59,192 nucleotides of DNA from an uncultured Methanosarcinales archaeon (GCA_964428445.1 CAYRYC010000002.1:1-59192), one strand, 5' to 3'. Positions 263 through 49,556 are shown, counted from the stretch's first letter. Notes: a model not told the origin generated them from the sequence alone. Program-made: numbers and translations.

Positions 263-370
263 AATATATCACCTGATAATTCAATCCGTCTTGAATGATT
301 TATATAATGAGTCAAGATAATGAGGACATCAGCTATCTCACCAATCACACGTGATTCGTGACTCAAAAAA

Positions 371-657
371 ATCAATTCAAAAAGAAAATAGTCGAAATAA
401 TATAAAGAAAAAACTCGGAGAAGGAGAAATATGAAAAAAGAAATAAAAAATCCAAAAATGTTGGGAAAACACCAAGAGTCCCAAAAAATTACTCGGACAA
501 AATAGCGACACCACAGGCATAAACAAAATCACCAAAAACAAGCAATCCACCCAAACAAAGTGACGAAAACAACAATTCAGAAGATACAAAGAACGTGTGT
601 AAAGAATTAGAAGAAACGAGTCCAACAAAGTTGGGAAAAGGGTAATGGGCCTGCCCG
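371..657 (+). repeat. long direct repeat, copy A (distal; ends in a 12-nt tRNA-Val 3'-end fragment at 646-657)
   Basis: Aligns base for base with 6318-6582, apart from about 10 substitutions in the shared core, a few more in the 5' box, and an extra insertion of about 22 nt (around 434-455). The plus strand is A-rich. No credible coding frame. Confidence 0.85.
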
Positions 658-781
658 ACCTCAGCTAACGCAAGCTACAAAACAAGTTTCATCAAAAAAA
701 CGCCAAAAATAAAGGTTTATTTATAAAGGTTGTGAATGAAACAACAAGGTTTATAAATAACTAAACCTCTCAAACAACAAG

Positions 782-2005: not shown

Positions 2006-2030
2006 AATAATATAAAGAAAAAACTCGGAG
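1981..2030 (+). repeat. third, partial copy (about 50 nt) of the 5' box of the island repeats; overlaps the ATPase stop codon and sits about 35 nt from the DGR TR
   Basis: gaaaatagttgaaataatataaagaaaaaactcggag matches 384-420 and 6331-6367 with 1-3 mismatches. It contains a BRE/TATA-like tcgaaataatataaag on plus and a T-run (gagttttttc) on minus. Confidence 0.7.
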
Positions 2031-2065
2031 GAATAAGATAGGGTGTCTCAGCCAATTTAGCTTGA

Positions 2066-2164
2066 CTATTCCAACGAACCGCCCATTATTGTTATTGACA
2101 TTATTATTGCCATTAGCATTGGAGTCATTATTAAGATTGTTGACATACCACAGGCGCCCAACAG
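2066..2164 (-). repeat. DGR template repeat (TR)
   Basis: Aligns to 2615-2716. On the minus strand it is AAY-codon rich; the pseudo-ORF reads VGRLWYVNNLNNDSNANGNNNVNNNNGRFVG. Mismatches to the VR fall almost only on its adenines. Confidence 0.85.
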
Positions 2165-2468
2165 TAGCCATTTCACCTTCTCAATATTTGTTCACCACCA
2201 CTTCGTTTCTCATGAAAATTATAAATTTTCAGGAGTTCAAAAATTCAAGATTTTTTAAAACCGTTGTGGTTGAATTTTATAACAGACAAAAAGCAGATGC
2301 TTTTTGGAGTCCCAGAAATTATTAATTTCTAAGGACAGTTAGACTGCCATAGTGAAATGACGTGTAGTTCCAAACCAATTCATGTATTCATCAATTATTT
2401 TGAATGATGAATCAGCTGAGACAAAAAGAAGTAAAAAGAAAAAGATATAAAAAAGTATCTAAAAGAAA

Positions 2469-3278
2469 TTACTTGTAGCTATCTTGAATAGCTTTTGTAA
2501 TTCCTTTTTTTGTTGCTCCTTCAACAACATCAGTATTTTTAAGGTAAGCATGCACATTGTTAGTAATTGTGCTGATACTAGGCGTATTACCGCGCGCACC
2601 AAGCGCCTCCGGCGCTACCCCAACGAACCGCCCACCACTCCTGCCATCGACACTATAATTGCCACTAGCACTGGAGCCATACCCAAGACTGCCGACACAC
2701 CACAGGCGCCCAACAGCTTTTTTTTGTGCTGAACCAAAATATACATCCATCATCTTTTCTTTGCTGTATTGTTCTTTTCCTAACCTGAATGTTTCATCAA
2801 CATAATTATTGAGAAGAATTTTATCTCCTCCTGCAAGTGCGATCCACACAGGATGATTTTTAGCTTCTTCAGGACTAAGAACTGATCTTAGTTTTAGATT
2901 TTCTATGTCTTTTTTTGAAAACTCCTCGACAGCATCTAATGATTTATACACTGCAATTGATTCATCAATACTATCTCCTAAAACTATAGCTCCATTTGAA
3001 AGAGGGGAGTTTGGTGTTAAGTCTTTGATTATTTGTGCTCCAAGAACAATTTTTGCACTGCCTTCCGGATGATAGAAAATTCCATCTCCAGTATCAAAAT
3101 AATTATTCCACCAAGCATCTTGAGTTGATGTACCTAATGAGTTTAATCTTTCTTGCATTAAACCAGCTGATAAAAGAGGAACTCTTCCTTCTGCAATAAG
3201 TTTAGGCATTTCTTTATGATTTGCTCCGTAGAAGTCCTTAAATGGGACGATTTGATCGTTTAGTTCTAAATTTGACAT
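2469..3278 (-). CDS. DGR variable (target) protein, VR-bearing C-terminal region (C-type-lectin/FGE-like fold inferred)
   Basis: 269-aa ORF containing the VR. Residues ...AVGRLWCVGSLGYGSSASGNYSVDGRSGGRFVGV... have invariant GRLW and GRFVG flanks, as in DGR CLec-type variable regions. Confidence 0.8.
   Translation of the reverse strand: MSNLELNDQIVPFKDFYGANHKEMPKLIAEGRVPLLSAGLMQERLNSLGTSTQDAWWNNYFDTGDGIFYHPEGSAKIVLGAQIIKDLTPNSPLSNGAIVLGDSIDESIAVYKSLDAVEEFSKKDIENLKLRSVLSPEEAKNHPVWIALAGGDKILLNNYVDETFRLGKEQYSKEKMMDVYFGSAQKKAVGRLWCVGSLGYGSSASGNYSVDGRSGGRFVGVAPEALGARGNTPSISTITNNVHAYLKNTDVVEGATKKGITKAIQDSYK
2591..2616 (-). promoter_or_regulatory. GC-rich IMH-like segment with a 6-bp hairpin immediately 3' of the VR
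   Basis: TR/VR homology stops here. The VR side reads agcgcc-tcc-ggcgct (2602-2616, perfect 6-bp stem) within cgcgcgcaccaagcgcctccggcgct. This is the most GC-rich patch in the region and the TR has no counterpart. Confidence 0.5.
2615..2716 (-). repeat. DGR variable repeat (VR)
   Basis: 102 nt versus the 99-nt TR. There are 20 substitutions at TR adenines, 1 at a non-A position, and one extra codon. Confidence 0.85.
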
Positions 3279-3429
3279 TTTATTTTTTACCTCGAATTAT
3301 ATTATAATACTTAAGAAGATTAGTTACTGTATTTAAACCTTTCGATTTTGTTGTCACTTTTAAGTAGTATTTGTTTGTTATCTCTCCCAACCATAAGAAC
3401 TAATAAAATACCTTGAATCACACCCAATA

Positions 3430-5064
3430 ATGAATATTTATAAAAAACTGTGCAGTTACGAAAATCTAGAAAAAGCATTCCTCAAGGCACGTAAAGGAAA
3501 AACACTAAAACAATACGTCATCGACTTCGAACATAATTTGCATGAAAATCTATTTGAACTTAGAAATGAACTGTTAATGCAAACATACAAACCAAAACCA
3601 TTGAAAACATTTATTCTTAGAGATCCAAAAACAAGAAAAATAAGCAAATCAGCATTCAGAGATAGAGTAATACATCACGCAATTTGCAACATAATAGAAC
3701 CAAGCTTTGAAAAAAACTTCATCCACGATTCATTCGCAAATAGAATCGGAAAAGGAACACTCAACGCAATAAAAAGATTTGATATCTTCAAAAGAAAAGT
3801 ATCAAAAAACAACACAAGAAAATGTTATGTTCTCAAAGCAGACATAAAAAGTTATTTCGAAACCGTAAGCCACAAAATTCTAATAAACATACTAAATAAA
3901 AAAATTCAAGATGAAAACACATTAGAACTCATAAAAATAATTCTCAACAACTATCAAGGAAAAGAAAACAACAAAGGAATGCCTCTAGGCAATCTAACTT
4001 CGCAATTCTTCGCCAACGTATATCTAAACGAACTTGATCAATATGTAAAACACAAACTAAAAGCCAAACACTACATTCGATACGTTGATGACTTCGCAAT
4101 TTTACACCAATCAAAACAAATTCTTGAAGAATATAAAAAACAAATAAATATTTTTCTTAAAAATAAGCTTGACCTCGTATTACATCCTGAAAAAACTCAA
4201 ATAATCAAATTAGAGAAAGGAATAGGATTCTTGGGATTCAGAATATTTTATCATCACAAACTTCTGGTCAAGAAAAATATGCGTAAATTTGAAAAGAAAA
4301 TGGAGCAGATGAAAAAAGATTATTCTAGAGAAAAAATTGACAGAGAAAAAGTTATTGAAAAATACGAGGGATGGATTGCATATGCATCTCATGCAAACAC
4401 CTACAAATATCGTAAAAGAATGACAAGCAAACTTAACATAGCATTTCCAACTCAGCCAGAAGTTAAAATTACCTCAGTAAAAAAGCATGAAAATTTCAAT
4501 AAAAAAATCGACTTCGACAAAATAGAATTTAGTCAACAAAAAACATTACAACTTATTAATAAAGGGCTAAATGTTAAACAAATAGCGGAAAAAAGAAGTA
4601 TTAAAGAAAGCACCGTATGGGATCATATTGCTAATTTAGTTCAGCATCACCAACTACAATTAAAGAGAGTTATGAAAACTCACAAAGTAAGAAAAATTCT
4701 CGATGCAATTACATCTCCAGAAAATAAATTAAAAGAAATTAAAAACAGAATAAAAGATGATTCAATATCATATAATGAAATACAAGTAGTCCTAGCAAAC
4801 GTAAAAGGAAAACACAAAAAGAAAAGCATATCATATTATGTTGAATGGTATCAGCGAACAAATTGCTTCAGAAAATGTTACCACAACAAGAATCAAAGAA
4901 ATGAATGTCGAGTTAAATTTCAACAACTAATTGCAAAAGAACCAAATTTGGAATTTTCTAGACAAGAATTTCTCAATTTTTTCAACAACTATGTGAACAT
5001 TTGCAAACTAGATGAAAAAGATAAAAGAAAATTTATTTCATGGAAACAATTTAAGAGAAAATAA
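3430..5064 (+). CDS. DGR-type reverse transcriptase with a C-terminal extension of about 210 aa (HTH plus Cys-containing tail)
   Basis: RT motifs KTRKISKSAFRDRVIHHAI, YVLKADIKSYF, the DGR-signature GMPLGNLTSQFFANVYL, RYVDDFAIL and GIGFLGFRIF. C-terminal QKTLQLINKGLNVKQIAEKRSIKESTVWDHIANLV looks HTH_40-like. Confidence 0.85.
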   Translation: MNIYKKLCSYENLEKAFLKARKGKTLKQYVIDFEHNLHENLFELRNELLMQTYKPKPLKTFILRDPKTRKISKSAFRDRVIHHAICNIIEPSFEKNFIHDSFANRIGKGTLNAIKRFDIFKRKVSKNNTRKCYVLKADIKSYFETVSHKILINILNKKIQDENTLELIKIILNNYQGKENNKGMPLGNLTSQFFANVYLNELDQYVKHKLKAKHYIRYVDDFAILHQSKQILEEYKKQINIFLKNKLDLVLHPEKTQIIKLEKGIGFLGFRIFYHHKLLVKKNMRKFEKKMEQMKKDYSREKIDREKVIEKYEGWIAYASHANTYKYRKRMTSKLNIAFPTQPEVKITSVKKHENFNKKIDFDKIEFSQQKTLQLINKGLNVKQIAEKRSIKESTVWDHIANLVQHHQLQLKRVMKTHKVRKILDAITSPENKLKEIKNRIKDDSISYNEIQVVLANVKGKHKKKSISYYVEWYQRTNCFRKCYHNKNQRNECRVKFQQLIAKEPNLEFSRQEFLNFFNNYVNICKLDEKDKRKFISWKQFKRK

Positions 5065-5125: not shown

Positions 5126-5650
5126 TTATAAATCCAGTATTAAAATTATTTTTTGTACAAATTTTGCTGCGTTACTAATTATTTCATCTACTTTTCTAGT
5201 TGTATAACTTGGTCTTGCTCGGTACCTTGCTGTGTGGCTTTCTGTTCTTGCATCACTAAAATATTTTATATATTCATCTTCGAATATTTTGTGTGCTTGA
5301 TCTAGTAATTCTAAATCTTCTTTTTCTATTTTATCAGGCACTAGCAAATATCCTAATGCTATTTGTGCTGCAAAATGATCGTTTACTTCATATCCTTTTG
5401 AAAGAATGGCTGCTTTAGTTGCATATAACATCGAGTAATAACTTATCGTTATCGCCCAATAATTCCAATGTATTTTTTCAGGTTGATCTTTGTTCGGCAG
5501 TATTTCCTTATGATGCTTTGCAATTAATAAGCTGTTTGTTGCTTTTTCTAAGAATAATTTTATCTTAAATGACTGAGTTGATTCTTTAATTTTAAGTTCT
5601 TCTTTAAATTGATTAAATAGTTCTTCATATTTTTCTTTATTATAATGCAT
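5126..5650 (-). CDS. HEPN domain protein (toxin-like partner of the upstream nucleotidyltransferase)
   Basis: All-helical 174-aa protein with an HEPN-like core (SLLIAKHH...YYSMLYATKAAILSKGYEV...H). It overlaps the NT gene by 11 nt, the canonical MNT-HEPN arrangement. Confidence 0.6.
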   Translation of the reverse strand: MHYNKEKYEELFNQFKEELKIKESTQSFKIKLFLEKATNSLLIAKHHKEILPNKDQPEKIHWNYWAITISYYSMLYATKAAILSKGYEVNDHFAAQIALGYLLVPDKIEKEDLELLDQAHKIFEDEYIKYFSDARTESHTARYRARPSYTTRKVDEIISNAAKFVQKIILILDL

Positions 5651-6233
5651 TTATTGTTACCTCCCAAAATTTTTGAGGGTTATTTAGAATAATATGATTT
5701 TTTAATGCTTGTTTTCCTACATTTTCTTCTTTATCGCTTAACATTAATTTAAATTCTTTTTTAGTTATAAAAATAGGATTTATTTTTTTATTAAATATTA
5801 ACTCATACTTAGAAAAAGATACTGTTCGATCCCCTCTAGTATTAATTATAAGTAAATCAATATCTGAATTTTTTGTTTGAGTTCCCTTCGCGTAACTGCC
5901 AAAAAGTAAAACCACATCATTAGTGTTTATTTCTTTTGAAAGTTGATTAATTTGTACTTGACTTTTTAGAAATTCTTGCTTTTCTTCGTCCGATGCTATC
6001 GTTAAGTGTGCAATTATAGTATCCTTTTCTTTATTTATTGTTATTAACTTAGTTTGACCAACAACTTCGCTCGTTAATAGATCTTTTAATTTACTTACAA
6101 TTCTATGAAATGTAGCATAAGGAATATTTAATAATTTACTTACTTCGTTCATCGAAAAGGCCTTAGAAGTATTTTTTCCCAGGAAAAGTAACAATTTATT
6201 TGAGTTATCCATATTATGGATATAATTATCCAT
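5640..6233 (-). CDS. minimal nucleotidyltransferase (MNT) with an N-terminal wHTH
   Basis: LLFGSYAKGTQTKNSDIDLLII matches the GS...DxD pol-beta NT motif. The N-terminal MNEVSKLLNIPYATFHRIVSKL is HTH-like. Confidence 0.7.
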   Translation of the reverse strand: MDNYIHNMDNSNKLLLFLGKNTSKAFSMNEVSKLLNIPYATFHRIVSKLKDLLTSEVVGQTKLITINKEKDTIIAHLTIASDEEKQEFLKSQVQINQLSKEINTNDVVLLFGSYAKGTQTKNSDIDLLIINTRGDRTVSFSKYELIFNKKINPIFITKKEFKLMLSDKEENVGKQALKNHIILNNPQKFWEVTINAL

Positions 6234-6317
6234 TAAATGATATATAAACTTTTCGGTTTGTAAAAATTACCATCGGAAGACAACATTTTGAGTTAGATAC
6301 AATTTGTAACCAACTGA

Positions 6318-6582
6318 ATCAATTCAAAAAGAAAATAGTTAAGATAATATAAAGAAAAAACTCGGACAGCGAGAATCCAAAAATGTTGGGAAAACACCAA
6401 GAGTCCAAAAAAATCACTCGGACAAAATAGCGACACCACAGGCGTAAACAAAATCACCAAAAACAAGCAATCCACTCATACTGCGTGACGAAAACAACGA
6501 TTCGGAAGATACAAAGAACGTGTGTAAAGAATTAGAAGAAACGAGTCCAACAAAGTTGGGAAAAGGGTAATGGGCCTGCCCG
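6318..6582 (+). repeat. long direct repeat, copy B (tRNA-proximal; overlaps the tRNA-Val 3' end at 6571-6582)
   Basis: See copy A. This copy is continuous with the intact tRNA-Val. Confidence 0.85.
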
Positions 6583-6643
6583 GACTCGAACCGGGGATCA
6601 ATGCCTTGTAAGGGCACTGTCATAGCCACTAGACCACAGGCCC
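6571..6643 (-). tRNA. tRNA-Val (anticodon UAC)
   Basis: Hand-folded cloverleaf: acceptor GGGCCTG/CAGGCCC, anticodon stem GTGCC/GGCAT with loop CTTACAA, T-arm CCCGG-TTCGAGT-CCGGG, discriminator A. CCA is not encoded. Confidence 0.85.
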
Positions 6644-8617: not shown

Positions 8618-10027
8618 ATGGCAAAAAAAACAAGATTAATTAAGTGTCCTGACTTAACTAGAATAGATAAAAGTATAGGAAAAGCCAGAGAAGATTTAGG
8701 AATCGAGGAAACACTGAACGGTTTTAAAAAAAGAATTAAAAATACATACAGGACCAGAGATTTTTATCCTTTAGAAAACACATTTCTCTTACAATTTAAA
8801 GTAGAAGATGCAATATATCGTAGAGATATTCTTGAACAATTTCTTGACAACGAAGCATTTCAAAAAACAATGAAAAAGATATCTCGAAAATTACCAAGAT
8901 ATCAATTTGCACTAATTAGCACAGATTGGTACGATGAAGTTCGAGAAGCAGATAGTCAAATCAGATTAGCAGCCATAAATAATACAAAATATTTGTATAT
9001 GGATGAAGCTTTGGAAACAATATTATCATTACCAAACGATACAAAAGCAACACAAGATATTCTTGCGTTTGCTGAAAAAGCAAAAAAAGCATTAAAACCA
9101 TATTTTCCTATTGCAGAAAAACTTAGAAAAAAACCAATAATAATAAAAAAACCAGACCCTCATAATTCAAAAAAATTAAAATTTGAGTACGATTACGAAT
9201 GGAATTATCATTGTGCTGAAAAACTAGAACCATTCATGGGACAATTAAAAGAAGTAATTCGATTAAAAAAACAATTTTCATATTACAAAGCATTAGCAAT
9301 ACCTTTTGAGGTCACATGCAATGGAAAAAGAATTCCTTCATGCAAACCAAAATTTTTACCGCAAGAAGAAAGAAAAGGCGAATTAAAAAAAGCATATCAT
9401 CCGCATTTTTTCGAAAAAACATGGGATTATTCAGAAATTGAAAAACTCAATATTCCGAACGATGTTCATTGGGGAGATAATGCTAGAAATACATATATTC
9501 TAGGAGCTAACGGTAGAGGAAAATCAGTATATCTCAAAACCATCGGATTAAACACTCATTTAGCAATGGCAGGTCTATACGCATTTGCTAAAGAATTCTC
9601 ACTATCACCAGTAGATCAAATATTTCCTTGCTTCGATATGGGAGATACATTAGGAGCAGGACATTTTCACAACGGAGCTAACCAAGTTACATATATGAAA
9701 GAAAATATAACAATTAACTCGCTAGTCCTTGGAGATGAAATCGGAGGCGGAACAGAACCAGAAGCAGAAACATGGGTGTCCAAAGGAATCTCAGACGCAC
9801 TCATCTATAATAATATAAGCTCGTTTTTTATTACGCATGACAAAGGAACATGGGAAGAACATCAAAATAAAAAAAATGTTATATTTTTGAGAGTTTCAGA
9901 TATTGATGATAATAAAAGAAAATACCGAATATGGGAAGGTATCCCAGAGAGCGGTTACGGAAAGAAAATTGCAAAAAAAGCAGGCATCGATCCACATTCA
10001 ATGAACGAAGCATTGAAAAAAATCTAA
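8618..10027 (+). CDS. MutS-family (domain V) ATPase-like protein
   Basis: Walker A GANGRGKSVYLKTIG and Walker B LVLGDEIGGGTEPEAE, with spacing typical of the MutS ABC-ATPase domain. The N-terminal part is unrecognised. Confidence 0.55.
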   Translation: MAKKTRLIKCPDLTRIDKSIGKAREDLGIEETLNGFKKRIKNTYRTRDFYPLENTFLLQFKVEDAIYRRDILEQFLDNEAFQKTMKKISRKLPRYQFALISTDWYDEVREADSQIRLAAINNTKYLYMDEALETILSLPNDTKATQDILAFAEKAKKALKPYFPIAEKLRKKPIIIKKPDPHNSKKLKFEYDYEWNYHCAEKLEPFMGQLKEVIRLKKQFSYYKALAIPFEVTCNGKRIPSCKPKFLPQEERKGELKKAYHPHFFEKTWDYSEIEKLNIPNDVHWGDNARNTYILGANGRGKSVYLKTIGLNTHLAMAGLYAFAKEFSLSPVDQIFPCFDMGDTLGAGHFHNGANQVTYMKENITINSLVLGDEIGGGTEPEAETWVSKGISDALIYNNISSFFITHDKGTWEEHQNKKNVIFLRVSDIDDNKRKYRIWEGIPESGYGKKIAKKAGIDPHSMNEALKKI

Positions 10028-14753: not shown

Positions 14754-15233
14754 ATGGCAATTGAAAAAGTAGATGTAATGATTAACGGCGGTAAAGCTAC
14801 AGCAGCACCACCTCTAGGACCAGCACTTGGACCACTTAAAATTAATATTGGACAAGTTGTTGCAGAAATTAACAAAAAAACAGCAGACTTCGCAGGAATG
14901 CAAGTTCCAGTAACAGTTAGCGTAAATACAGAAACAAAAGATTTCACAATCAAAGTTGGAACTCCTCCAGCATCAGCTTTAATTAAGCAAGAAGCAGGAG
15001 TAAAAAAAGGTGGAGCTAATCAGTTAACAGATACAGCAGGAAACCTTAGTTTTGATCAAGTTCTAAAAATTGTTCGTATGAAACAAGATGCTCTTTACGG
15101 AAAAAATATGGCAAACATGGCTAAAGAAATCATGGGAACCTGTCGAAGTATGAGTATTACCATTGATGGTAAAAAAGCTCAAGAAGCTATTGAAGCTCTC
15201 AATAAAGGCGAATACAACGCGCAGTTAAAGTAA
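14754..15233 (+). CDS. rpl11: 50S ribosomal protein L11 (uL11)
   Basis: GGKATAAPPLGPALGPLKINIGQVV is the conserved L11 N-terminal motif. Confidence 0.95.
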   Translation: MAIEKVDVMINGGKATAAPPLGPALGPLKINIGQVVAEINKKTADFAGMQVPVTVSVNTETKDFTIKVGTPPASALIKQEAGVKKGGANQLTDTAGNLSFDQVLKIVRMKQDALYGKNMANMAKEIMGTCRSMSITIDGKKAQEAIEALNKGEYNAQLK

Positions 15234-15413
15234 TTTAACTGATTTTTTGAATTTTAATTCAAACCTTGTAAGGGTTTGAGAAATATTATTTGTCAAAAGC
15301 CTAGAGGAAATACACTAGTATTTTCGACCCGGTTTTTTCTTTTTTTATCCTTTTTCTATTTATCTTTTTCTTAGCATAAATTTATAATAAACTTCTACTT
15401 ACAACAATATCCA

Positions 15414-15788
15414 ATGAAATTATACAGAAAAAAACTAGTCACAGAAACAAAAATTTCATACGAACAAGTAATTAGTGAGTTAGAAGAACTCATTGAAAAA
15501 AAAGTTCCCGTAGATACAAAAGGTTTCGCTCAAATGAAAGATATCTCTACAGAATTAGCGATAGGATTTATTAAAAAACGAATTCAAATTTTGCCTGGAG
15601 AATCAGACCTGTACAATTTTTCAGGAATAAAAAGAGAATATAAAATTAAAAAAGAAACTAAAATAGACTTCATTCTTAACAAGATAGCTAAGCCAAAATA
15701 CAAAAATACACTTAAAAAATGTGAATTAGCTTCTATGATCGTTGAGAAGCAATTAATAATCACATACACCAAAGGACAATCTTTATAA
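15414..15788 (+). CDS. hypothetical protein
   Basis: 124-aa ORF with no recognisable motif. Confidence 0.4.
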   Translation: MKLYRKKLVTETKISYEQVISELEELIEKKVPVDTKGFAQMKDISTELAIGFIKKRIQILPGESDLYNFSGIKREYKIKKETKIDFILNKIAKPKYKNTLKKCELASMIVEKQLIITYTKGQSL

Positions 15789-15812
15789 ACAAAATATGAT
15801 TTCTCGCAACCT

Positions 15813-16100
15813 ATGGTAGACAGAGTAGGTGGTTTCAGACGGAACACGCGACACAAATTACGGAAAAACGTTAGACAACATGGAAAAATTAGTCTACGAA
15901 GATTCCTGCAAACCTTTGAAGTAGGCGACAGTGTACGATTAGCAGCAGAGCCAGCATATCAAAAAGGAATGTACTTTCCACGATTCTACGGAAAATTCGG
16001 AATTATAAGTAAAGTAGTAGGAAGATGTTACGAAGTTAAAATCAAAGACGGAAAAGATAAAACCGTTGTTGTACATCCAGTACACTTAAACAAGGCGTAG
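15813..16100 (+). CDS. rpl21e: 50S ribosomal protein L21e
   Basis: GGFRRNTRHKLRK...FEVGDSV...PRFYGKFG is typical L21e, and it sits in the conserved L21e-RpoF-DUF655 neighbourhood. Confidence 0.9.
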   Translation: MVDRVGGFRRNTRHKLRKNVRQHGKISLRRFLQTFEVGDSVRLAAEPAYQKGMYFPRFYGKFGIISKVVGRCYEVKIKDGKDKTVVVHPVHLNKA

Positions 16101-16155
16101 ATAAAATAAAACTATGAACTTGTTCATCAGATTAACATTTTGAAAGGAGTGAAAA

Positions 16156-16512
16156 ATGGTAAAACCAGAAGTTCTTGAACAAAAACCAGTCACAGTATCA
16201 GAAGTAAAAGATATTCTCAAGAAAGTTCAAAAACGTGATGAGGAACTAACATTCCGTGGTGGAAAAACACTAGATCACGTAAACGAAGTACCTTCAGCAA
16301 CTCTTACCAAAACAAAGGAGCTAGCTAAAAAAATTGCAGCTCTAGAGATTCCTCGACTTAAAGACATCCATATCGTTAAAACAATCGATACAATGCCTGA
16401 GAGCGCAGAACATCTTAAAGTTATTCTTAGTGGCTACAACGTCACAATTACTAAAGAAAACATGCAGAAAATCGTCGATACACTCGATGAATATCGCCCA
16501 ATTAAAAAATAA
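16156..16512 (+). CDS. rpoF: DNA-directed RNA polymerase subunit Rpo4 (RpoF)
   Basis: Size, conserved position after rpl21e, and Rpo4-like sequence (VSEVKDILKK...EELTFRGGKTLDHV). Confidence 0.8.
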   Translation: MVKPEVLEQKPVTVSEVKDILKKVQKRDEELTFRGGKTLDHVNEVPSATLTKTKELAKKIAALEIPRLKDIHIVKTIDTMPESAEHLKVILSGYNVTITKENMQKIVDTLDEYRPIKK

Positions 16513-18791: not shown

Positions 18792-18959
18792 TTATTTCTT
18801 CTTATTTTTCTTTTGCAATATTGCTACCACAATAATTAAAAGAATAAAAAATACAACTGTTCCTAAATAATAAATAAAATTAGTTTCGGGTTCTGGAAAG
18901 AAAAACATAACCACAACAAGAAGTCCAATAAGAACAGGAATAATATAATTATGTTTCAT
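18792..18959 (-). CDS. 55-aa two-span membrane peptide, start overlapping the giant ORF stop
   Basis: Below the ORF-track cutoff. Translation: MKHNYIIPVLIGLLVVVMFFFPEPETNFIYYLGTVVFFILLIIVVAILQKKNKKK. Its ATG shares one base with the TGA of the upstream 2730-aa gene (TGATG). Confidence 0.45.
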   Translation of the reverse strand: MKHNYIIPVLIGLLVVVMFFFPEPETNFIYYLGTVVFFILLIIVVAILQKKNKKK

Positions 18960-21900
18960 CAGGATTTCATTTCTCCTAATTTCTCAAGATCTTCATCTTC
19001 AATATCTTTAATAGCTTCAATCTTTTCTTTCATCTCGACATTCTTCTGATGAACAAAGAATAAAAGAATTCCTAAACCAATAAGAAGAGCTAAAGCAGTT
19101 CCTCGTAAATAGACATTAACATGATCTCTAGGAGAAGGCATGAATTTATCAAATTCGGAATTACAAGATAAAGTTTCAACATCACAACCAGCAGAACAAA
19201 CTTTCTGAGTAAGCCATAAGTCTCCTTTATCTGAACATACAAATAATAGTTTGCCATCGCAAGCTAGTTCGCCAGGATAACAAGTAGGTTTTATAGTTAC
19301 ATATGTTGAGGCTTTTGACCTATCAGAACTTGTAGCAGTTTTCCCACACTCAAAATCAACAGTATGAGGGCCTTCAGTTAAACCAATAAGTTTAGTATAA
19401 AATGTATTTCCTTCTTGATATAATTCTTGTTGAGTAGATCCATCAATACTAAACCAACATACAGCGGTTCGAGGAGTTACAATAATTTGTAAAAAAGTTT
19501 CATCAACAGTAATTATTTCTCCAAGAGGAGATATAACAGTTATTTGCGGAGCATTATTATTACTAGAACTTCCACCACTTCCACCACCGTCAAGTTCAGG
19601 AATAAGTCCTTGTAAAATTCCAAATCCTGAGAAAGAAGTAACAACAAGTTCGAAATAATCTCCAGCAGTACTTTGCGAAGCTTGAGAACTTACATCATCC
19701 CAAGTTCCATCACATGTTTGCGTGGTAAAATTATAATTATCACATTTGTATAGTTCAAGATAATTTTCATCAATAATACCGGATGCTCCTTCATAGGAAA
19801 GTTCAACTGTTGCTTGAGTAAAATCATAACTTGTTTCAAGACCATATTTTACAAGGAATTCTCCATTGTCATATTCATCCATACCAAATTCTTCACCGTT
19901 GTGAAGATCAATATCTACTTCTTCAATATATGCTCTTAACATTCCATTATAAGCTATAAATTCAACATCGTGATTTATATCAGCTAGTTCTGTTGAATAT
20001 TCTCCATCTACTCGGGAATCTGCATAAACAATAGCGTTTCGATAGTAAGCTCGAACAGTACTGTTAATTCCATCGCTGGATGAATTAATAACAGTTACAT
20101 TAAATGGAGGGGTTATAGGATTAAACACTTCGAAATAATCAGTAGCGTTTACTTCTTGACCAATTGAATTGTTTGCAAAGAAAATAAGACTATAATTTCC
20201 AAGAAGATCAGTATCTAAATAGCTTATATTTGCTTCATCAACAAGTAAAATAATTTCTGAACTGTTATCAGGCTTTGTTAGATTTACCCAAACATCACTA
20301 AATTCGTGAGCATCAATGTATAATTCAATCGTATCATTAACAAATGTAGCATAAGGAATAGCTTTCGCTTCTATAATAGAGAGACCGAAATCACAGGCGT
20401 CATCAATACCATCACCATCAGTATCTAAACCAGTGTTTACAAGATTCGGACAGCTATCGCATGCAAGATTTACATTTCCTAAAGAATTGTAAAGAGTAGT
20501 GTAAATACCTTCAGTCCAACCATCATTATCAAGATCTGCTTTCGCACAAGTCCAATTTAATCCATCAGCCGTTACTCCGCTGCTTGTTAAACTATTACAA
20601 ATATAAAATACTTTGTAGGAACTGTTAACTTCATCAGAATCACTATCAGTATTGTTTGCATAAATAAAATATATTCCATCAACAGAAACGTTAATATGAG
20701 AGGATATGTCAATTGTTGTTCCACAAGTTACAACATTTGTTCCAACAACACTTGCAGTTTCAGTTCCTTGAAGATCTTTTGAACCATTAAGAATATTAAT
20801 TGTACAATCATTAAACGTATCTCCATTTCCAGTTGTAAATTCGAAATCGCCAGAAACTAAAGAAGTAGTTGTATCATTATAGTATGCTCTAGATAATTCA
20901 TAATCTGAAGTTGTATCAATTGGTAAAACATTTACCATGAATGAAGATGCATTTGTATCTCCAAGATTATCATATCGATCAGTTGCATTAACCCAAATAT
21001 CTGTTGAACCATAATCATCTGTTGGAGTAAATGAATAAACACAATCAGTTTCAAATGAAGAACCTACAGTATCTATTTCCATATCACAACCATAGATATT
21101 ACTATCCTCATCATAAGGTGCCACGTAGAAAGTCACATCATCTCCATAATAAACTTCTGAAGGACCGACAGACATTGATCGAACGACAGGAATATTTGAT
21201 TCTACAACAGTTACGCTTGCAGTTTGACCGCTTCCAATTCCACCATAACCAGTATTTGATGAAACAGGGAATGTTTCTGCTCCTAAACTAACAGTTCCAT
21301 CTACAGGGAAAGTAACTGTTAAAGCTAAAACACCACCATTAGCTGAAAGACCATCAGTACCACTATCAGTTAATGTTAATACACTACTTGACCAATCTTT
21401 ACAACTTGCACCACAAGCAAAGTCACTTGCAGATAATCCGCTTAAAATAATTTCTCCGGTTGTTGCTGGGAAACTAACGCCATTACTCAAAGTTCCTAAT
21501 CCTAAAATAACTTGAGAACTTGAATGATCTGCTCCGCTCTTTGTTCTAAATTGAATAGTAAAATTTTCTTCTGAAGGAATATTTTTGTGAGTTCTAACAT
21601 AATATCTAAACTCAACATCGCCAGCACCAGTGTCAGTCCAAGAAGACCAAGCAGGCGTAGCTGAATGAGAATTTAAAGTATCGTAACTTGGACAAGCTGT
21701 CGATCCTGAACAACCAGAATCAGCACAATCAATATTACCATCTGCATCATTATCAAAACCATCACCACATTGTGTTGTGGTTTCACTTGTTGCACAAGTT
21801 TCTCCATCATCTCTAGTGACAGTATCACAACCAGAATCAGCACAATCAACAGTTCCGTCTCCATCATTATCAAGACCATCACCACAAGCAAGACTTGAAG

Positions 21901-24900
21901 TTTCTGAAGCAACACAAATTCCTCCACCATAGGAACCAAGTTCACCAACACAATCAGCATCAGCACAATCAATTCCAACAGTAGCAGAAGTTAAATAATC
22001 TCCATTCGTTGCTGCATCGTAATCATTGTTAATTCCATCAGCACATGAACCATAAGTATAATTTTCAATACTAGGACAAGGTCCACAGGATTGATAAATT
22101 TCCCAACAATCAGAATATGATAAAACAGAGTTAGCTGTTGCGAATAAACCAGAAGTATTTGTGTTATCAACACAACTGGATGTTAGACCAAACATTATTG
22201 GTCTTGAATCGAAATCATCATCTAAAGTATTTCTACATAAATCATGAGATCCTAATTTGAATTCTGAAGCAATACAAATTTCTGAAGAGTTAGAAGGATT
22301 AATTACATTAAGACAGTCAGGATCATCACAATCAAATCCTGTTGATGCATTTGCAATATAATTTGTTCCAATCCAAACATAAGCATCTAAATCATTATCA
22401 ATCCCATCCCAACAAGTAGCACCATCACCATCATATTCAGTAATATATGAAATGGAAGCACTACAAGTACTTGTCCCATAACAATCATAATCATCGCAGT
22501 CTGCACCGGTTGTTGAAAATAAAGGATCAGGAACTAAAATAGATTTCCAGTTTGCACTTCCACCCATTAAATCGACATCGAAATCGTTATCAATTCCATC
22601 AGTACATTGATCTTCTCGGTATGCACAAATTCCTCCAAGAGACGATAAACTTTCATTACGTCCCCAACAAGAGTACGCATCAAAACAATCAATCGCTCCT
22701 GTTGATCGGCAATCAGCATAGGTGCCATCACATGTAATTCCTACACCATAAGAAGCAATATCTGCGTCGTTATCAAAACTATCATTACAACTACTAGGAG
22801 TTGAAGTGTAATTTATTGTTCCTTCTGCAGTTGAACTATATTCACAATATGCAATTTCAGAAGTAGCGTTATAATATTTTACTGCTTCTCCACTTGCATC
22901 ATAATAAGCTCCTATTCTACTATTACAATCTGAGTCTGCACAATCAACATTACCATCACCATCATTATCAAAACCATCCCAACAAGTAGTTTCAGGACTT
23001 TCACAACTAATAGGATCAGCATTACTAGTTTGACCAATTTGAACACCAACACAATCAGAATCACGACAATCATAATCATCATAATTAAGATCGTTATTTA
23101 CACCATCATTACAAGCATTAGGACTTGTTGCAGTTCCTGAAAGAACAGTTGATGTGTCAGTATTTAATGCAGTATCATTTTCAAAATAATTTTTAGGATT
23201 AGCTGAAGTTAAATCTATAGTTAAATTATCATCACCAAGACCAGTTCCAACATAAACATCAAAGTTAACAGTATAAGTATTATCACTCTCACCTACTAAA
23301 GACATATTAGTAACTTGACTGAGAGATCCACTATAGGTTGCAGAACTTCCAGCATTAGGTCGAGACGAAGCCATAGCTCCACGATAAGGAGCAGAGTCAG
23401 GAACTAAAATTTTATAAGCTAATCCTGTTGAAGGAGTTCCATTATATAACTGTGTTTGAGAATCAGTAACATCAAACGAAGGCGTACCAACACTCTTTGC
23501 AGTCATCGCGACAATTGCTACTGATGAAATAGTTTTTTCATATTGAACTTTGAATGTTCCTGATTGAGAAACATTTTGAGTATAACGAACCGTAGCTCCA
23601 CCAATACCGCCAGTAACAGTACAAATATTTCCTGAACAGGTTTCAGCCTGTGTTGAAAATTCATCACCAATAGAATCAATTTCTCCAAAAGTTCCAAATC
23701 CCGCACCAGGATCTAATACATGAGATGAACAATCAGGGAAAAATAATGTCTGACAATCAGTATCAGAACAATCAGTACCGCCAGCACCATCATTATCAAT
23801 ACTATCATTACAAAGACCTTCATAAGTCGCACTTCCTAAATATTTATAGAAAGCAAAATTAACATCTTGTTGGTTTGCATCATTATGACTAAAATACCAT
23901 CTTAATCCATTCTTCCACGATTGGTATGCATTAGCTGCATCTTTAGCTTGACCGTTGTCAATCCAATCAGTAGTTTTTACATAAACAGGATAATCGTCAT
24001 CATTATAAGAAATAACAGTAAGACTCTGATCAGTAATTGTACAATTATCTACAAACCAAGATTGTGTTGTAGAACCATCAAAATCACCTGGTTGAATAGT
24101 ATATGATAAAGTTATATTACCAGGACTTGAAAGTTCACCAACACCAACAGTATGATTAAGTTCAATTTGATCGGTTTGGTTTTTGTAAACAAAACATCGC
24201 AACACAGAATCATCTTCCGCAGTTACATTTACGAATGTAATATTAAAAGTATCAAGAGTCACAGAACTACCAGGATAAATAGTTGAAAGTTCATAAACAC
24301 CTTGAGGATAATCTAGTTGAGAAGAATTCCAAACAACAGAACATACAAACTCACAAGTACAATCTTCTTCCCAAGTCAAACAAGGATAAACATCCGCACT
24401 ATCATTAATTCCCCAAATACTATTCGGATCAGAACAATTCATAAACCAATTTGCATCAGTATATTGTTGGTGATATTGCATTAGAATAGTTGAACTTCCT
24501 GTAATTCCACTTACATTTCCCAAATTTCCAGTATCAACAGAAACTCCAGCTGTTTCAATATCCCAAAAGTTTTCTGTGTAACCTACTGAACTTCCATAAC
24601 CAACAAAACCTCCAACATTACTTCCGCTTCCATCAACAATTCCCGTTGAATAAGAAGTTAAAATTTTACCTTGATAAACAAAACCTGCCAAACCACCAAC
24701 ATAGCTGTTACCAGCAACATCTCCACTTGCATAGGAATTATTAATAATTCCTCCATAAGATCTTCCAGCAAGACCACCAATAAAATTATCAAAACCAACA
24801 ACATTTCCAATTACATAAGAATCGTTAATAATTCCATAATAATTATAACCAACTAATCCACCTACAGTAGAATGTCCAGACACATTAACACGCGAATAAG

Positions 24901-27151
24901 AATTATGAACTTCTCCATTATTAACATAACCAACTAAGCCACCAACATAATTTAAAAGCCCATTCAAAACTCCAATTACATATGAATTAGAAATATTTCC
25001 TGTACTATAAGCAACTAAAGATCCAACAGTATCTTGTCCAGTTATATTAACATCAACCATCCCAACATCACTAATAGTCCCTAGTTCGAGATAACCAAAC
25101 AAACCAACATAAAATCCAGAAGGACGATTAATATGAAAATTACTAATATTATAATTATCACCATCAAAAGTTCCTGTGAATTTAATTGAATTATTTCCAA
25201 CAGGATCAAATCCAGCTCCACTATTCCAATTTGTCGTGTTGGAACAATCAATATTATTTGTTAAAGTATAATTATAATTTAAATTATTTTCCATGTGCTG
25301 CAATTCACAACAAGAATCAATCTCATAATAAGTATCAGAATTATTATCATCTAAAATAAAACCATTATTTAGATCTTCAGGATTACAAACAGGATAAGCA
25401 AATAAACATTCACAACCATCTTCCCAAGTCAAACAAGGATAAACGCCAGCACTATCATTAATACCCCAAATACTATTCGGATCAGAACAATCCATATCCC
25501 AAGCATTATCAGTGTATAAATAATGATTTTGCATTACTGAAGTTATATTACCATAACCTTTTCCAGTATCTGATTGTCCTGAAGTTTCGTTATCATAAAA
25601 AGAAACAAATGCTGTTCCCGCACTAAATCCCACTAAACCACCAACATCACTATTACCAGTAACATTTCCTGATGAATAAGAATTATTAACATAAGAATCA
25701 CTATTACCAATTCTACCAACAAGACCACCAACATTAATATTTCCAGTAACGTTTCCTAAAGCATATGAATTATGAATAGAACCATTCAAAATAAAACCTA
25801 CAAGACCACCAACATATGACGACGGAGTAGAATAAACTAAAACATCAGAATATGATTGTCTAACAATTCCATGAGCTTTAGGTGTACCTGTAAAACCAAG
25901 ATACCCAACCAAACCACCAGAGGGAGACGCAGAAGAAATAGTTCCTTTTTCTACAGAAACATTTTCAATTAAACCCCTAGAACTACCAACAGCACCAGCA
26001 CCACAAATATCAGAAACGGCAATAGTAATATTATAAACATAAGAATTTGTTAAATTACTACTTGCAAGCATAAAACCAATGAGACCTCCACTATAATACC
26101 CATCTTGTATTTGAGAATTGTAAGAATGAATATTATCAGCAACACCACTATAAATCCCGATAATAACGCCTGCTTGGTATTCAGAGGCATAAATAATTGA
26201 ATAATTAGAAGACACATCATTAATAGAAACATTAGACAAACCACGACCAAGAAGAGATCCAACAGCAGATCGTCCTTTTAAAGAAAAATTTTGTAAATAA
26301 ACATTTGAAATAATACAATTATTAGCATAACCAAACAGCCCCACATTATCTTCAATTGTTCTGTTAATATACAAATTACTAATAGTATAACCATCACCAT
26401 TAAAGGAACCAACAAAATTATTTGTACTATTTCCTACAGGCAAAAATCCATTATACCCAGTTCCATTATTATTCCAAGTTGTAGTATTGATACAATCAAT
26501 ATTATTAGAAAGAATATAATCATTTGCAAGATTTAAATTCATATCTTGAAGTTCTGAACAATTAGTAATGTATACAGTAGCCTGCGTACTAAATACTTCT
26601 TCGACAATAACTCCTCCAGTTGATTCAATGGTAAAATAATTACTCATCGCAACAAATTCTCCATCTGTCGCATAGAATCTGATAGTTTCAGTTCCAACAA
26701 AACTTTTTATTGGAACAATGATTGCTAAATTATCAATAAAAGTAATATCAAAACGCATACTCAAAGAAGGAGAATAAGAAAGAACAGTTGTTTCATCATC
26801 TACAAAGTAAGAAGAAAGATCAAATGCATTTCCAAGAGGATTGTCAATATAAATCGTAGGAACAGTTCCTACAAATCTAGGAGCAGTATTATTTTCAGGA
26901 ATAAGCATGGGACCCGATAAGGGTACAGTTACATTTCCATCAGTAACAGGATCAGTGGCAACAATTTCTTCTTCTAAAATAATATCTTCAGAAACATTTA
27001 CAATATTTGAAATTGTTTCATTTAGTTTAAAAGTAAGTTCATCTAAAGGAGCATCTTGCAAAGTTACAGAGCCAATAACACCTAATGATGAAAATAAAGG
27101 ATTTATATTTGTGCTTAGAAATGAAACTCCTAATAGAAGAAAAGAAGTCAC
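18959..27151 (-). CDS. giant (2730 aa) surface protein with GLUG-like beta-helix repeats and Cys/Asp-rich metal-binding-type repeats; C-terminal TM anchor
   Basis: N-terminal hydrophobic signal. Many VGGLVG[YF] repeats and repeated C.DG.DND.DG..DC.DSDC modules. C-terminal ALALLIGLGILLFFV followed by a charged tail. Confidence 0.85.
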   Translation of the reverse strand: MTSFLLLGVSFLSTNINPLFSSLGVIGSVTLQDAPLDELTFKLNETISNIVNVSEDIILEEEIVATDPVTDGNVTVPLSGPMLIPENNTAPRFVGTVPTIYIDNPLGNAFDLSSYFVDDETTVLSYSPSLSMRFDITFIDNLAIIVPIKSFVGTETIRFYATDGEFVAMSNYFTIESTGGVIVEEVFSTQATVYITNCSELQDMNLNLANDYILSNNIDCINTTTWNNNGTGYNGFLPVGNSTNNFVGSFNGDGYTISNLYINRTIEDNVGLFGYANNCIISNVYLQNFSLKGRSAVGSLLGRGLSNVSINDVSSNYSIIYASEYQAGVIIGIYSGVADNIHSYNSQIQDGYYSGGLIGFMLASSNLTNSYVYNITIAVSDICGAGAVGSSRGLIENVSVEKGTISSASPSGGLVGYLGFTGTPKAHGIVRQSYSDVLVYSTPSSYVGGLVGFILNGSIHNSYALGNVTGNINVGGLVGRIGNSDSYVNNSYSSGNVTGNSDVGGLVGFSAGTAFVSFYDNETSGQSDTGKGYGNITSVMQNHYLYTDNAWDMDCSDPNSIWGINDSAGVYPCLTWEDGCECLFAYPVCNPEDLNNGFILDDNNSDTYYEIDSCCELQHMENNLNYNYTLTNNIDCSNTTNWNSGAGFDPVGNNSIKFTGTFDGDNYNISNFHINRPSGFYVGLFGYLELGTISDVGMVDVNITGQDTVGSLVAYSTGNISNSYVIGVLNGLLNYVGGLVGYVNNGEVHNSYSRVNVSGHSTVGGLVGYNYYGIINDSYVIGNVVGFDNFIGGLAGRSYGGIINNSYASGDVAGNSYVGGLAGFVYQGKILTSYSTGIVDGSGSNVGGFVGYGSSVGYTENFWDIETAGVSVDTGNLGNVSGITGSSTILMQYHQQYTDANWFMNCSDPNSIWGINDSADVYPCLTWEEDCTCEFVCSVVWNSSQLDYPQGVYELSTIYPGSSVTLDTFNITFVNVTAEDDSVLRCFVYKNQTDQIELNHTVGVGELSSPGNITLSYTIQPGDFDGSTTQSWFVDNCTITDQSLTVISYNDDDYPVYVKTTDWIDNGQAKDAANAYQSWKNGLRWYFSHNDANQQDVNFAFYKYLGSATYEGLCNDSIDNDGAGGTDCSDTDCQTLFFPDCSSHVLDPGAGFGTFGEIDSIGDEFSTQAETCSGNICTVTGGIGGATVRYTQNVSQSGTFKVQYEKTISSVAIVAMTAKSVGTPSFDVTDSQTQLYNGTPSTGLAYKILVPDSAPYRGAMASSRPNAGSSATYSGSLSQVTNMSLVGESDNTYTVNFDVYVGTGLGDDNLTIDLTSANPKNYFENDTALNTDTSTVLSGTATSPNACNDGVNNDLNYDDYDCRDSDCVGVQIGQTSNADPISCESPETTCWDGFDNDGDGNVDCADSDCNSRIGAYYDASGEAVKYYNATSEIAYCEYSSTAEGTINYTSTPSSCNDSFDNDADIASYGVGITCDGTYADCRSTGAIDCFDAYSCWGRNESLSSLGGICAYREDQCTDGIDNDFDVDLMGGSANWKSILVPDPLFSTTGADCDDYDCYGTSTCSASISYITEYDGDGATCWDGIDNDLDAYVWIGTNYIANASTGFDCDDPDCLNVINPSNSSEICIASEFKLGSHDLCRNTLDDDFDSRPIMFGLTSSCVDNTNTSGLFATANSVLSYSDCWEIYQSCGPCPSIENYTYGSCADGINNDYDAATNGDYLTSATVGIDCADADCVGELGSYGGGICVASETSSLACGDGLDNDGDGTVDCADSGCDTVTRDDGETCATSETTTQCGDGFDNDADGNIDCADSGCSGSTACPSYDTLNSHSATPAWSSWTDTGAGDVEFRYYVRTHKNIPSEENFTIQFRTKSGADHSSSQVILGLGTLSNGVSFPATTGEIILSGLSASDFACGASCKDWSSSVLTLTDSGTDGLSANGGVLALTVTFPVDGTVSLGAETFPVSSNTGYGGIGSGQTASVTVVESNIPVVRSMSVGPSEVYYGDDVTFYVAPYDEDSNIYGCDMEIDTVGSSFETDCVYSFTPTDDYGSTDIWVNATDRYDNLGDTNASSFMVNVLPIDTTSDYELSRAYYNDTTTSLVSGDFEFTTGNGDTFNDCTINILNGSKDLQGTETASVVGTNVVTCGTTIDISSHINVSVDGIYFIYANNTDSDSDEVNSSYKVFYICNSLTSSGVTADGLNWTCAKADLDNDGWTEGIYTTLYNSLGNVNLACDSCPNLVNTGLDTDGDGIDDACDFGLSIIEAKAIPYATFVNDTIELYIDAHEFSDVWVNLTKPDNSSEIILLVDEANISYLDTDLLGNYSLIFFANNSIGQEVNATDYFEVFNPITPPFNVTVINSSSDGINSTVRAYYRNAIVYADSRVDGEYSTELADINHDVEFIAYNGMLRAYIEEVDIDLHNGEEFGMDEYDNGEFLVKYGLETSYDFTQATVELSYEGASGIIDENYLELYKCDNYNFTTQTCDGTWDDVSSQASQSTAGDYFELVVTSFSGFGILQGLIPELDGGGSGGSSSNNNAPQITVISPLGEIITVDETFLQIIVTPRTAVCWFSIDGSTQQELYQEGNTFYTKLIGLTEGPHTVDFECGKTATSSDRSKASTYVTIKPTCYPGELACDGKLLFVCSDKGDLWLTQKVCSAGCDVETLSCNSEFDKFMPSPRDHVNVYLRGTALALLIGLGILLFFVHQKNVEMKEKIEAIKDIEDEDLEKLGEMKS

Positions 27152-48976: not shown

Positions 48977-49010
48977 AGTTTTAATGTGGAATTAAAGAGT
49001 CTTTTTAAAG

Positions 49011-49352: not shown

Positions 49353-49397
49353 AAGATTATTAAAATAGGCATGCTAAGAATTACTGTAAAATTTACT

Positions 49398-49521: not shown

Positions 49522-49556
49522 GAGGAAGTACAGGATATTCAATTAGGAGTAAAAAA

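Follow-up and report, generated by a model that had tools for sequence, protein, structure and literature searches.

A diversity-generating retroelement of DPANN-archaeal type and the RT-16 RNA next to its template repeat

We analysed a 59,192-nt stretch of DNA recorded as coming from an uncultured Methanosarcinales archaeon (GCA_964428445.1, CAYRYC010000002.1:1-59192; hereafter the window), in which positions 2066 to 5064 hold what is almost certainly a diversity-generating retroelement (DGR). Its reverse transcriptase (RT) gene lies on the plus strand, and its target gene, with a variable repeat (VR), and its template repeat (TR) lie on the minus strand. We consider it highly probable that the element is complete, was recently active, is of the DPANN-archaeal type and sits on a tRNA-Val-linked island, with its TR joined to the Rfam family RT-16 in one RNA unit. 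Seen simply as a DGR, it is unremarkable: its DPANN clade is large and the fold of its target is known. Its interest beyond routine annotation lies in the connection between RT-16 and the TR, together with the covarying helices that close the RNA.

The cassette and its variable repeat

The genes and repeats of the cassette are as follows.

3430..5064, plus strand: DGR reverse transcriptase, 544 aa, core at residues 1 to ~326 (Pfam RVT_1, E 1e-25; PDB and fold matches)
4531..4794, plus strand: HTH_40 helix-turn-helix domain, residues 368-455, in the RT C-terminal extension (Pfam PF14493, E 9e-20)
4864..5004, plus strand: conserved Cys-containing RT tail, predicted alpha-helical (homologue alignment; all-helical in the AlphaFold2 (AF2) model)
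2469..3278, minus strand: target gene, 269 aa, predicted AvpA-like variable protein of C-type-lectin fold (AF2 and Foldseek)
2615..2716, minus strand: VR, 102 nt (TR/VR alignment; holds 10 of the 11 differences from contig L006, below)
2602..2616, minus strand: GC-rich hairpin AGCGCC-GGA-GGCGCT directly 3' of the VR, target-recognition element (sequence and relatives)
2066..2164, minus strand: TR, 99 nt, mostly AAY codons (TR/VR alignment)

A first-pass annotation, made from the sequence alone, had described a complete DGR of a class that is not new, and the RT, the adenine-biased TR/VR pair, the C-type-lectin target and the hairpin all bear this out. The RT belongs to the DGR clade by its motifs and by having the Bordetella phage DGR enzyme, bRT, as its nearest relative of solved structure in both sequence and predicted fold. 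The motif-4 sequence LGNLTSQ (residues 186-192) and YVDD (218-221), both pointed out previously, are invariant in 29 homologues. The best PDB sequence match is bRT (8ub7_A, E 1e-43, 153 bits), and the AF2 model built on the 29 homologues has 8ubd_A and 8ub7_A as its top Foldseek matches (TM 0.78, 29% identity). Because bRT (328 aa) aligns to residues 2-326 only, about 220 aa of the enzyme form a C-terminal extension, which had been overlooked; it carries HTH_40 and a tail in which C479, C483 and C493 are invariant and C525 nearly so in the homologue alignment. A PDB sequence search returned no relative of the tail, and a literature search found no published function linking HTH_40 with a reverse transcriptase. 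The RT family itself is large (5,919 matches at E <= 1e-10, labelled Woesearchaeota, Nanoarchaeota and similar).

The TR (2164..2066) and the VR (2716..2615) are a genuine repeat pair on the minus strand. Their flanks, GTTGGGCGCCTGTGGT and GGGCGGTTCGTTGG, are both invariant, as had been reported, and the latter is a GC-rich element common to TR and VR that resembles an initiation-of-mutagenic-homing (IMH) site. An end-to-end alignment had been claimed; repeats and flanks do match, but the VR carries one extra codon, unmentioned at the time, within the AAY-derived codon run just 5' of GGGCGG, where the position of the gap is ambiguous. At the best gap placement, 20 substitutions fall on TR adenines and one on a non-adenine (T>G, AAT>GGG), and our recount thus returned the original figure of 20 out of 21. 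When two extra flanking bases are included, 21 of 32 adenines are changed compared with 2 of 69 other bases (Fisher p = 9.5e-12). Counting both the window (2640-2682) and L006, there are three non-adenine changes, all of them T>G at the third position of AAT codons, giving GGG and AGG in the window VR and AAG at 2658 in L006. More VRs matching this TR had been suggested as worth a search; we scanned the 59-kb window and found none.

We fetched related loci, 5 from genomes and 80 from metagenomes, and scanned them with an adenine-wildcard repeat finder, which returned an A-biased TR/VR pair in 46. TR and VR are unequal in length in 8 of 31 loci (L014, L045, L055, L065, L068, L071, L077 and the window), and several of these eight differences are whole codons (+3, +6), a pattern that suggests slippage on the AAY repeats. 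Pairs of this kind would be truncated or overlooked by ungapped finders. In four loci (L015, L039, L057 and L072), two VRs match one TR, that is, there are two target genes per cassette.

The target protein has no Pfam match and no PDB sequence match. Its AF2 model (pLDDT 91.8) has a single significant Foldseek match, the Nanoarchaeota protein AvpA (5ioo_A, E 3e-8, TM 0.76), and by this model the target is a C-type-lectin fold of the AvpA type with the VR in the variable loop region. Its 80 homologues, none of them named, come from Woesearchaeota, Nanoarchaeota or Pacearchaeota bins. Aligned, they have a conserved scaffold interrupted by a single hypervariable block, which lies between GRLW.V and GRL/FVGVAPEA and coincides with the VR; the VR sits ~55 aa before the C-terminus. 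Directly 3' of it, the 13-nt hairpin core GCGCCGGAGGCGC (2603-2615) occurs exactly once in the window, where 0.06 occurrences are expected. This hairpin (GCGCC-GGA-GGCGC) adjoins the VR only, not the TR, and is present in most related loci; it matches the trinucleotide-loop hairpin reported for Nanoarchaeota DGRs (PMC4372165). One related target (L051:1431-3104) has an N-terminal Ser/Thr protein kinase domain upstream of its VR.

At 90% identity, the target protein falls in a cluster of three. One member, P0202, differs from the window target at five residues, all in the VR (NYSVDGRS in the window, KYYVSGYY in P0202). We aligned the contig that encodes it (L006, from a different ENA assembly of the same strain) to the window over ~8.8 kb and found, outside the left flanking repeat, 11 differences in all, 10 of which lie at 2638-2658 inside the VR. 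Nine of these ten fall at TR-adenine-templated positions or in the extra codon, and one is a T>G. The TR is identical in three assemblies, the third of which carries the window VR. A check of population variation by read mapping had been proposed; made here in miniature, by comparing assemblies rather than reads, it places nearly all variation of unique sequence in the VR and leaves the TR unchanged. Ten VR differences compared with one elsewhere in unique sequence imply that diversification was very recent relative to the divergence of the strain, and we regard recent activity of the element as probable. The VR differences of L006 are restricted to the 3' half of the VR, as expected if conversion tracts start at the 3' end.

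RT-16 and the helices around the template repeat

The following features, all on the minus strand, make up or adjoin the proposed template RNA.

2159..2421: RT-16 RNA (Rfam RF03019) with two lineage-specific hairpin insertions (53.0 bits, gathering threshold 50, E 4e-7)
2410..2423: P0a 5' arm UGUCUCAGCUGAUU (predicted to pair with 2057..2044 in the minimum free energy (MFE) and centroid structures; covariation)
2044..2057: P0a 3' arm AAUUGGCUGAGACA (covariation; fold)
2366..2378: P0b 5' strand UUGGUUUGGAACU, including the CU of the CUACACG junction at 2367..2361 (covariation)
2057..2067: P0b 3' strand, the TR-terminal AG plus UCAAGCUAA (covariation)
2351..2361: P2 5' strand, partner 2177..2167 (Rfam consensus helix; MFE and centroid)
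2167..2177: P2 3' strand, ending 2 nt before the TR/VR homology, candidate polymerisation stop (Rfam helix; fold)
2445..2454: TATA-like box TTTTTTATAT, candidate archaeal promoter of the TR RNA (positional conservation in relatives)
2018..2023: U6 run 20 nt after the 3' arm, candidate archaeal terminator (read from the sequence)

The covariance match to RT-16 is full-length (model 1-158) apart from its two insertions, and the window copy has the conserved elements CUACACG, GUCAUAAAAUxCA and GGUG as well as helix P2. Of 34 related TR-bearing loci, 30 have an RT-16 match above gathering, which shares the strand of the TR in every case, wherever the RT gene lies, and the TR/VR homology starts between -8 and +3 nt from the end of the RT-16 model in 30 of 31 loci. 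In the window, RT-16 is ~1 kb from the RT gene; its consistent neighbour is the TR, not the RT gene. For the motifs RT-1 to RT-19, the original description (Weinberg et al. 2017, PMC5737381) goes no further than nearness to RT genes; RT-10, the Bordetella TR-RT spacer, is the only one that it tied to a DGR, and the retron or DGR roles that it offered for the rest are speculative. A literature search, which took in the main texts of Weinberg et al. 2017 and Wu et al. 2018, found no later functional assignment of RT-16/RF03019. We hold it very probable indeed that RT-16 is the leader of the DGR template RNA. An orphan Rfam family would thus gain a function, and RT-16 matches can locate TRs directly, including those whose VR differs in length. 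The earlier estimate that the TR lies about 300 nt downstream of the target stop codon was right as to spacing (stop codon 2469-2471, TR start 2164, gap 304 nt); the interval, however, is not an empty spacer but RT-16.

Two long-range helices appear to join RT-16 to the sequence at and just past the TR 3' end. In P0a, the first bases of RT-16 (consensus GUCCyrGC), which start 2-3 nt before the Rfam model, are complementary to GCyrGGAC located 10-25 nt 3' of the TR. In P0b, the strand that leads into CUACACG and takes in the CU of that junction can pair with the two final bases of the TR and the next 6-10 nt. We examined P0a by permutation, with the 5' arm set by the Rfam start coordinate only and the 3' region by the TR end only; cognate helices were longer than non-cognate ones (8.5 compared with 6.35 nt), and none of 20,000 permutations reached as high (p <= 5e-5). 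In a MAFFT alignment of 22 loci, 89.8% of P0a cells were paired, compared with 29-42% in slid registers, and 9 of 10 pairs had compensatory changes, with 36 double-change cells compared with 10.5 after shuffling (0 of 500 as high). It is highly likely that P0a is a real helix. For P0b, automatic strand registration failed in about one third of loci, and the evaluation was therefore limited to the 16 that have no extra A ahead of CUACACG; there, 83.8% of cells were paired (29-47% when slid) and 37 double-change cells were counted (14 when shuffled), including a U-A to C-G change at the pair that joins the junction to the TR end.

Folding calculations point the same way. Unconstrained MFE structures of whole units contained at least six long-range pairs in 32 of 37 loci, and for the window unit the predicted folding energy is -102.4 kcal/mol (z = -5.2), its MFE and centroid structures alike containing P0a and P2. 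Two other scores discriminated poorly: RNAduplex on 330-nt flanks gave long spurious duplexes and did not separate cognate from non-cognate pairs, and a longest-helix score over the whole upstream region separated them weakly in AT-rich DNA.

The RNA also looks like a gene of its own. In 18 of 28 loci, TATA-like hexamers are concentrated between -29 and -25, counted from the base at which pairing of the 5' arm begins. At the other end, 10 of 28 loci have a T-run no more than 14 nt past the 3' arm; where the layout is same-strand, the RT start codon takes the place of the T-run, a few bases after that arm. From these sequence signals, the TR looks like the 3' part of a self-contained RNA unit of ~380 nt (~2423..2044, minus strand), whose 5' two thirds would be RT-16.

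Several observations weigh against this picture of a recently active element with an end-clamped template RNA. The RT-16 score of the window is only just over gathering (53 compared with 50), barely so because the two inserted hairpins lower it. P0b is weak in the window, with two single-nucleotide bulges and -8.1 kcal/mol, and is absent from the window MFE structure, and the covariation alignments were registered on sequence anchors of our own choosing, with two rows fixed by hand. The Rfam P1 hairpin, which pairs the 5' arm with the P0b strand, also covaries (78.5% of cells paired, 27 double-change cells compared with 12.9). The 5' arm, the P0b strand and the post-TR segment are pairwise complementary, and P1 and P0 are therefore mutually exclusive. 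P0a is predicted to be more stable than P1 in 19 of 22 loci, and the mean for P0a plus P0b is -29.5 kcal/mol compared with -10.9 kcal/mol for P1. We read P0 and P1 as two conserved conformations, either of which may be the working state. As for activity, there are only two VR alleles among the three assemblies; A>G makes up 19 of the 21 changes in the window VR allele, rather than random substitution; and both VR alleles keep the codon that a simple homing event from the present TR would remove.

Proposed mechanism, rival explanations and genomic setting

We tentatively propose, with rather less than even confidence, that DPANN DGRs lacking Avd operate with the RT and one RNA gene, the RNA being permuted, clamped at its ends, cis-primed at CU-A-CACG, stopped at P2 and switched off in the P1 state. 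The RNA unit would be transcribed on its own, from about the 5' arm to just past the 3' arm, and the RT would bind its RT-16 scaffold. P0b would then serve as the template:primer duplex, bringing the CUACACG junction beside the last TR bases, where cDNA synthesis would be cis-primed; we infer this priming chemistry by analogy with Bordetella. Two adenines of GGAAUAG, just 5' of P0b, are altered in the VRs of most loci, and copying therefore starts at or beyond them, which is consistent with junction priming. Helix P2, which ends 2 nt short of the TR, would halt synthesis. The adenine-mutagenised cDNA would then take the place of the VR, with the GGGCGGTTCGTTGG element and the hairpin as guides. 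The RNA scaffold may plausibly do in this element what Avd does in Bordetella. RT-16 and its covarying closing helices offer a concrete, testable RNA model for how DGRs could work without Avd; Wu et al. (2018) pointed out that many DGRs lack it and must rely on some other mechanism. Should the RT and one RNA of 250-380 nt be enough, no DGR chassis for targeted protein diversification would be more compact.

Transcription as an independent RNA unit would leave its orientation relative to the RT gene free among relatives, and an independent RNA gene would account for the freely varying cassette layouts in the clade. Among about 41 related TR/VR loci, ~29 have the same-strand order VR>TR>RT, 7 are convergent, 3 are divergent like the window (L002, L047 and L050) and 1 has the order RT>VR>TR, with similar VR-to-TR spacing across all layouts. 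The divergent layout is thus one ordinary option in the archaeal clade and not exceptional. The first-pass description of the architecture as atypical is not sustained by these four layouts, nor by the catalogue of DGRs, in which those without any accessory gene (Architecture A) make up 29% of a curated set and TR and RT on opposite strands are already documented (Wu et al. 2018, PMC5758913).

The earlier remark that an Avd-sized open reading frame (ORF) is lacking has held up. The only ORFs of at least 85 aa in or beside the cassette are the RT, the target, an 87-aa antisense ORF and neighbouring genes; a 65-aa ORF over the TR has no Pfam match, and no match to the Avd family was found among the cassette ORFs or 20 small ORFs across the 59-kb window. 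Avd is present in about 70% of DGRs and is not universal. When ORFs of at least 70 aa within 2 kb were clustered across 42 related loci, no recurrent small-ORF family appeared near the cassette; the recurrent families were target families, a tyrosine integrase (7 loci), an AAA_14/DUF4143 ATPase (5), HEPN (3) and MNT (3). An ORF with a MutS_V domain (8618-10027, 469 aa) was considered as an accessory gene of the MSL type and rejected on account of its length, its position outside the island and its failure to recur near related cassettes. This MutS domain V ATPase lies beyond CysRS and tRNA-Cys and probably has no connection with the MSL genes that accompany some DGRs.

Could a protein do the work of Avd instead, either the HTH_40 and Cys-rich extension of the RT in cis or an unlinked host protein? 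The ~220 aa beyond the bRT-equivalent core, with a helix-turn-helix of nucleic-acid-binding type and the conserved cysteines of the tail, would suit such a role. The RTs linked to RT-16, however, fall into three length classes: 345-405 aa without HTH_40, 465-490 aa with HTH_40, and 540-570 aa with HTH_40 and the Cys tail. The shortest class accounts for 12 of the 31 RT-16-linked loci and has no extension, yet RT-16 and an A-biased TR/VR pair are present there too, and an accessory ORF is missing as in the other classes. Common to all three classes is the RNA scaffold alone; RT-16 is present in each and HTH_40 is not, and the extension is therefore not a general substitute for Avd. We consider a protein substitute doubtful, though it has some chance of being right, also in the form of an unlinked factor. 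It is unlikely, to a greater degree, that the cassette is a fossil in which RT, TR and VR are intact but homing has stopped, the VR differences predating a recent deletion of one codon from the TR. The shorter TR, with the longer form kept in both VR alleles, and the small number of alleles would fit such an arrest; against it stand an intact RT ORF with an invariant catalytic core, an RNA unit, hairpin and promoter-like box that are all intact, and the concentration of ten differences in the VR, which makes the diversification very recent. Whole-codon length differences between TR and VR also recur in related loci and so need not mean decay.

The remaining alternatives deny that the locus is a DGR. 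A retron-like msr/msd RNA, with a retron or defence RT and an incidental TR/VR similarity, would be in keeping with the terminal inverted repeats of the unit, its structured 5' part and its template 3' part; some homologues of the RT are named 'retron-type reverse transcriptase' in their source records, and many of the RT motifs were guessed to be retrons by Weinberg et al. (PMC5737381). We think this very improbable, as the RT is nearest to DGR bRT while retron RTs rank 45th or lower among the fold matches of its model, the variation is confined to the VR, and the template next to RT-16 has, in 30 of 34 loci, a VR that differs from it with adenine bias. The chance is smaller still, and close to nil, that we are dealing with an ordinary gene-fragment duplication or gene conversion, or with a group II intron RT beside a chance repeat. 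The best NCBIfam match of the RT is indeed a group II intron model (TIGR04416), but at 171 bits it is far under the cut-off of 300; NCBIfam has no DGR RT model, the best group II intron RT in the PDB sequence search reached 89 bits compared with 153 for bRT, and an Rfam scan found no group II intron RNA family in the window. A fragment duplication with unbiased substitutions, which the first-pass annotation had named as a finding that would overturn its claim, is contradicted by the adenine bias (p ~1e-11).

The DGR is located on a 5.65-kb island between direct repeats of ~290 nt, 90-94% identical, which include the 3' 17 nt of tRNA-Val, in agreement with the tRNA linkage described before.

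370..662, no strand assigned: left island repeat, including the 3' 17 nt of tRNA-Val plus ~270 nt (90-94% identical to 6317-6587)
6317..6643, minus strand: tRNA-Val (6571-6643) and right repeat copy (6317-6587) (tRNA and repeat search)

Taken together, positions 1-662 and 6317-6643 suggest that elements have integrated in tandem at tRNA-Val. An ORF that starts at ~262 on the minus strand, to the left of the left repeat, runs off the window and clusters with the tyrosine integrases found near 7 of 42 related cassettes. In L006, ~24 substitutions and a deletion of 15 nt set the left repeat (444-628) apart, and elsewhere the island matches the window throughout except in the VR; the divergence reflects either fast evolution, recombination or mis-assembly. 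A third copy of the tail of the island repeat (CCGAGTTTTTTCTTTATATTAT..., 69% identical) lies at 1980-2038, just 3' of the TR RNA unit, and may represent a shared terminator module. At 782-2005, an ATPase with AAA_14 and DUF4143 domains is encoded convergently with the TR RNA; its family stands beside the cassette in 5 of 42 related loci. The RT gene is adjoined at 5126-6233 by overlapping HEPN (174 aa) and MNT nucleotidyltransferase (197 aa) genes that resemble a type VII toxin-antitoxin; such a pair is near the cassette in three related loci. Farther away, a 2,730-aa ORF occupies 18959-27151 on the minus strand. Genes for ribosomal proteins L11, L21e, S6e and L44e, for Rpb4 and for a TFIIS-type zinc ribbon are present at 14754-16512, 32440-32913 and 48665-49874, and the window is therefore chromosomal archaeal DNA.

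Comparison with known systems

The closest described elements are the DGRs of Nanoarchaeota (DUSEL4) and their target AvpA (Paul et al. 2015, PMC4372165; Handa et al. 2016, PDB 5ioo), which share with the window a DPANN host, an orphan target with a C-type-lectin fold, and an IMH-like GC element with a trinucleotide-loop hairpin 3' of the VR. They differ in that AvpA is only 20% identical in sequence to the window target, in that Avd-sized ORFs are drawn between RT and target while the window has none, and in that neither an RT-16 leader nor an HTH_40 extension of the RT is mentioned there (PMC4372165). The Architecture A DGRs and the avd-less Lineage 3 of Wu et al. (2018, PMC5758913) are likewise cassettes of RT, TR and target only, and an Avd-independent mechanism was proposed for avd-less DGRs in that study. 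It reports no RNA structure, however, and no motif in the RT C-terminal extensions (up to ~150 aa), and the TR-(avd)-RT order of 90% of its candidate phyla radiation (CPR)/DPANN set is not seen in the window's clade.

Compared with RF03019 as modelled (PMC5737381), the proposed RNA extends past the TR. The Rfam model ends at the TR edge and is thus without the post-TR partner strands, and its P1 hairpin competes with the long-range helices P0a and P0b. Retron msr-msd RNAs resemble the window unit in having terminal inverted repeats that close the RNA, a structured 5' part, a template 3' part and a putative priming region beside the closing duplex. The retron RT belongs to another clade, however, and the window template copies a protein-coding repeat that is homed into a gene.

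The Bordetella BPP-1 DGR (PDB 8ub7) offers the most direct structural comparison. Its RT is homologous (29% identity) and it shows the same adenine-specific transfer from TR to VR. In the Bordetella phage RNA, one spacer strand forms a template:primer duplex with the TR 3' end (Sp47-56); 2 nt later, Sp59-70 forms a stop duplex with a segment upstream of the TR, and the remaining spacer is wound around the RT and touches Avd (bioRxiv 10.1101/2023.10.23.563531). The Bordetella TR is looped out between duplexes at its 5' boundary and its 3' end that share one continuous partner strand, as the TR of the window would be; that strand is composed of the P0b strand, ACACG (5 nt) and the P2 strand in the window, and of Sp47-56, 2 nt and Sp59-70 in Bordetella. 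Unlike Bordetella, the window has no Avd, and its structured RNA, with the putative primer and stop strands, lies 5' of the TR and not 3' (the Bordetella order being upstream segment, TR, spacer). The window RNA would also have an extra clamp helix, P0a, joining its ends, and its own predicted promoter, and it may lie opposite the RT gene strand. From this analogy, we infer that the order of the window RNA is a circular permutation of the Bordetella RNA, with a retron-like topology.

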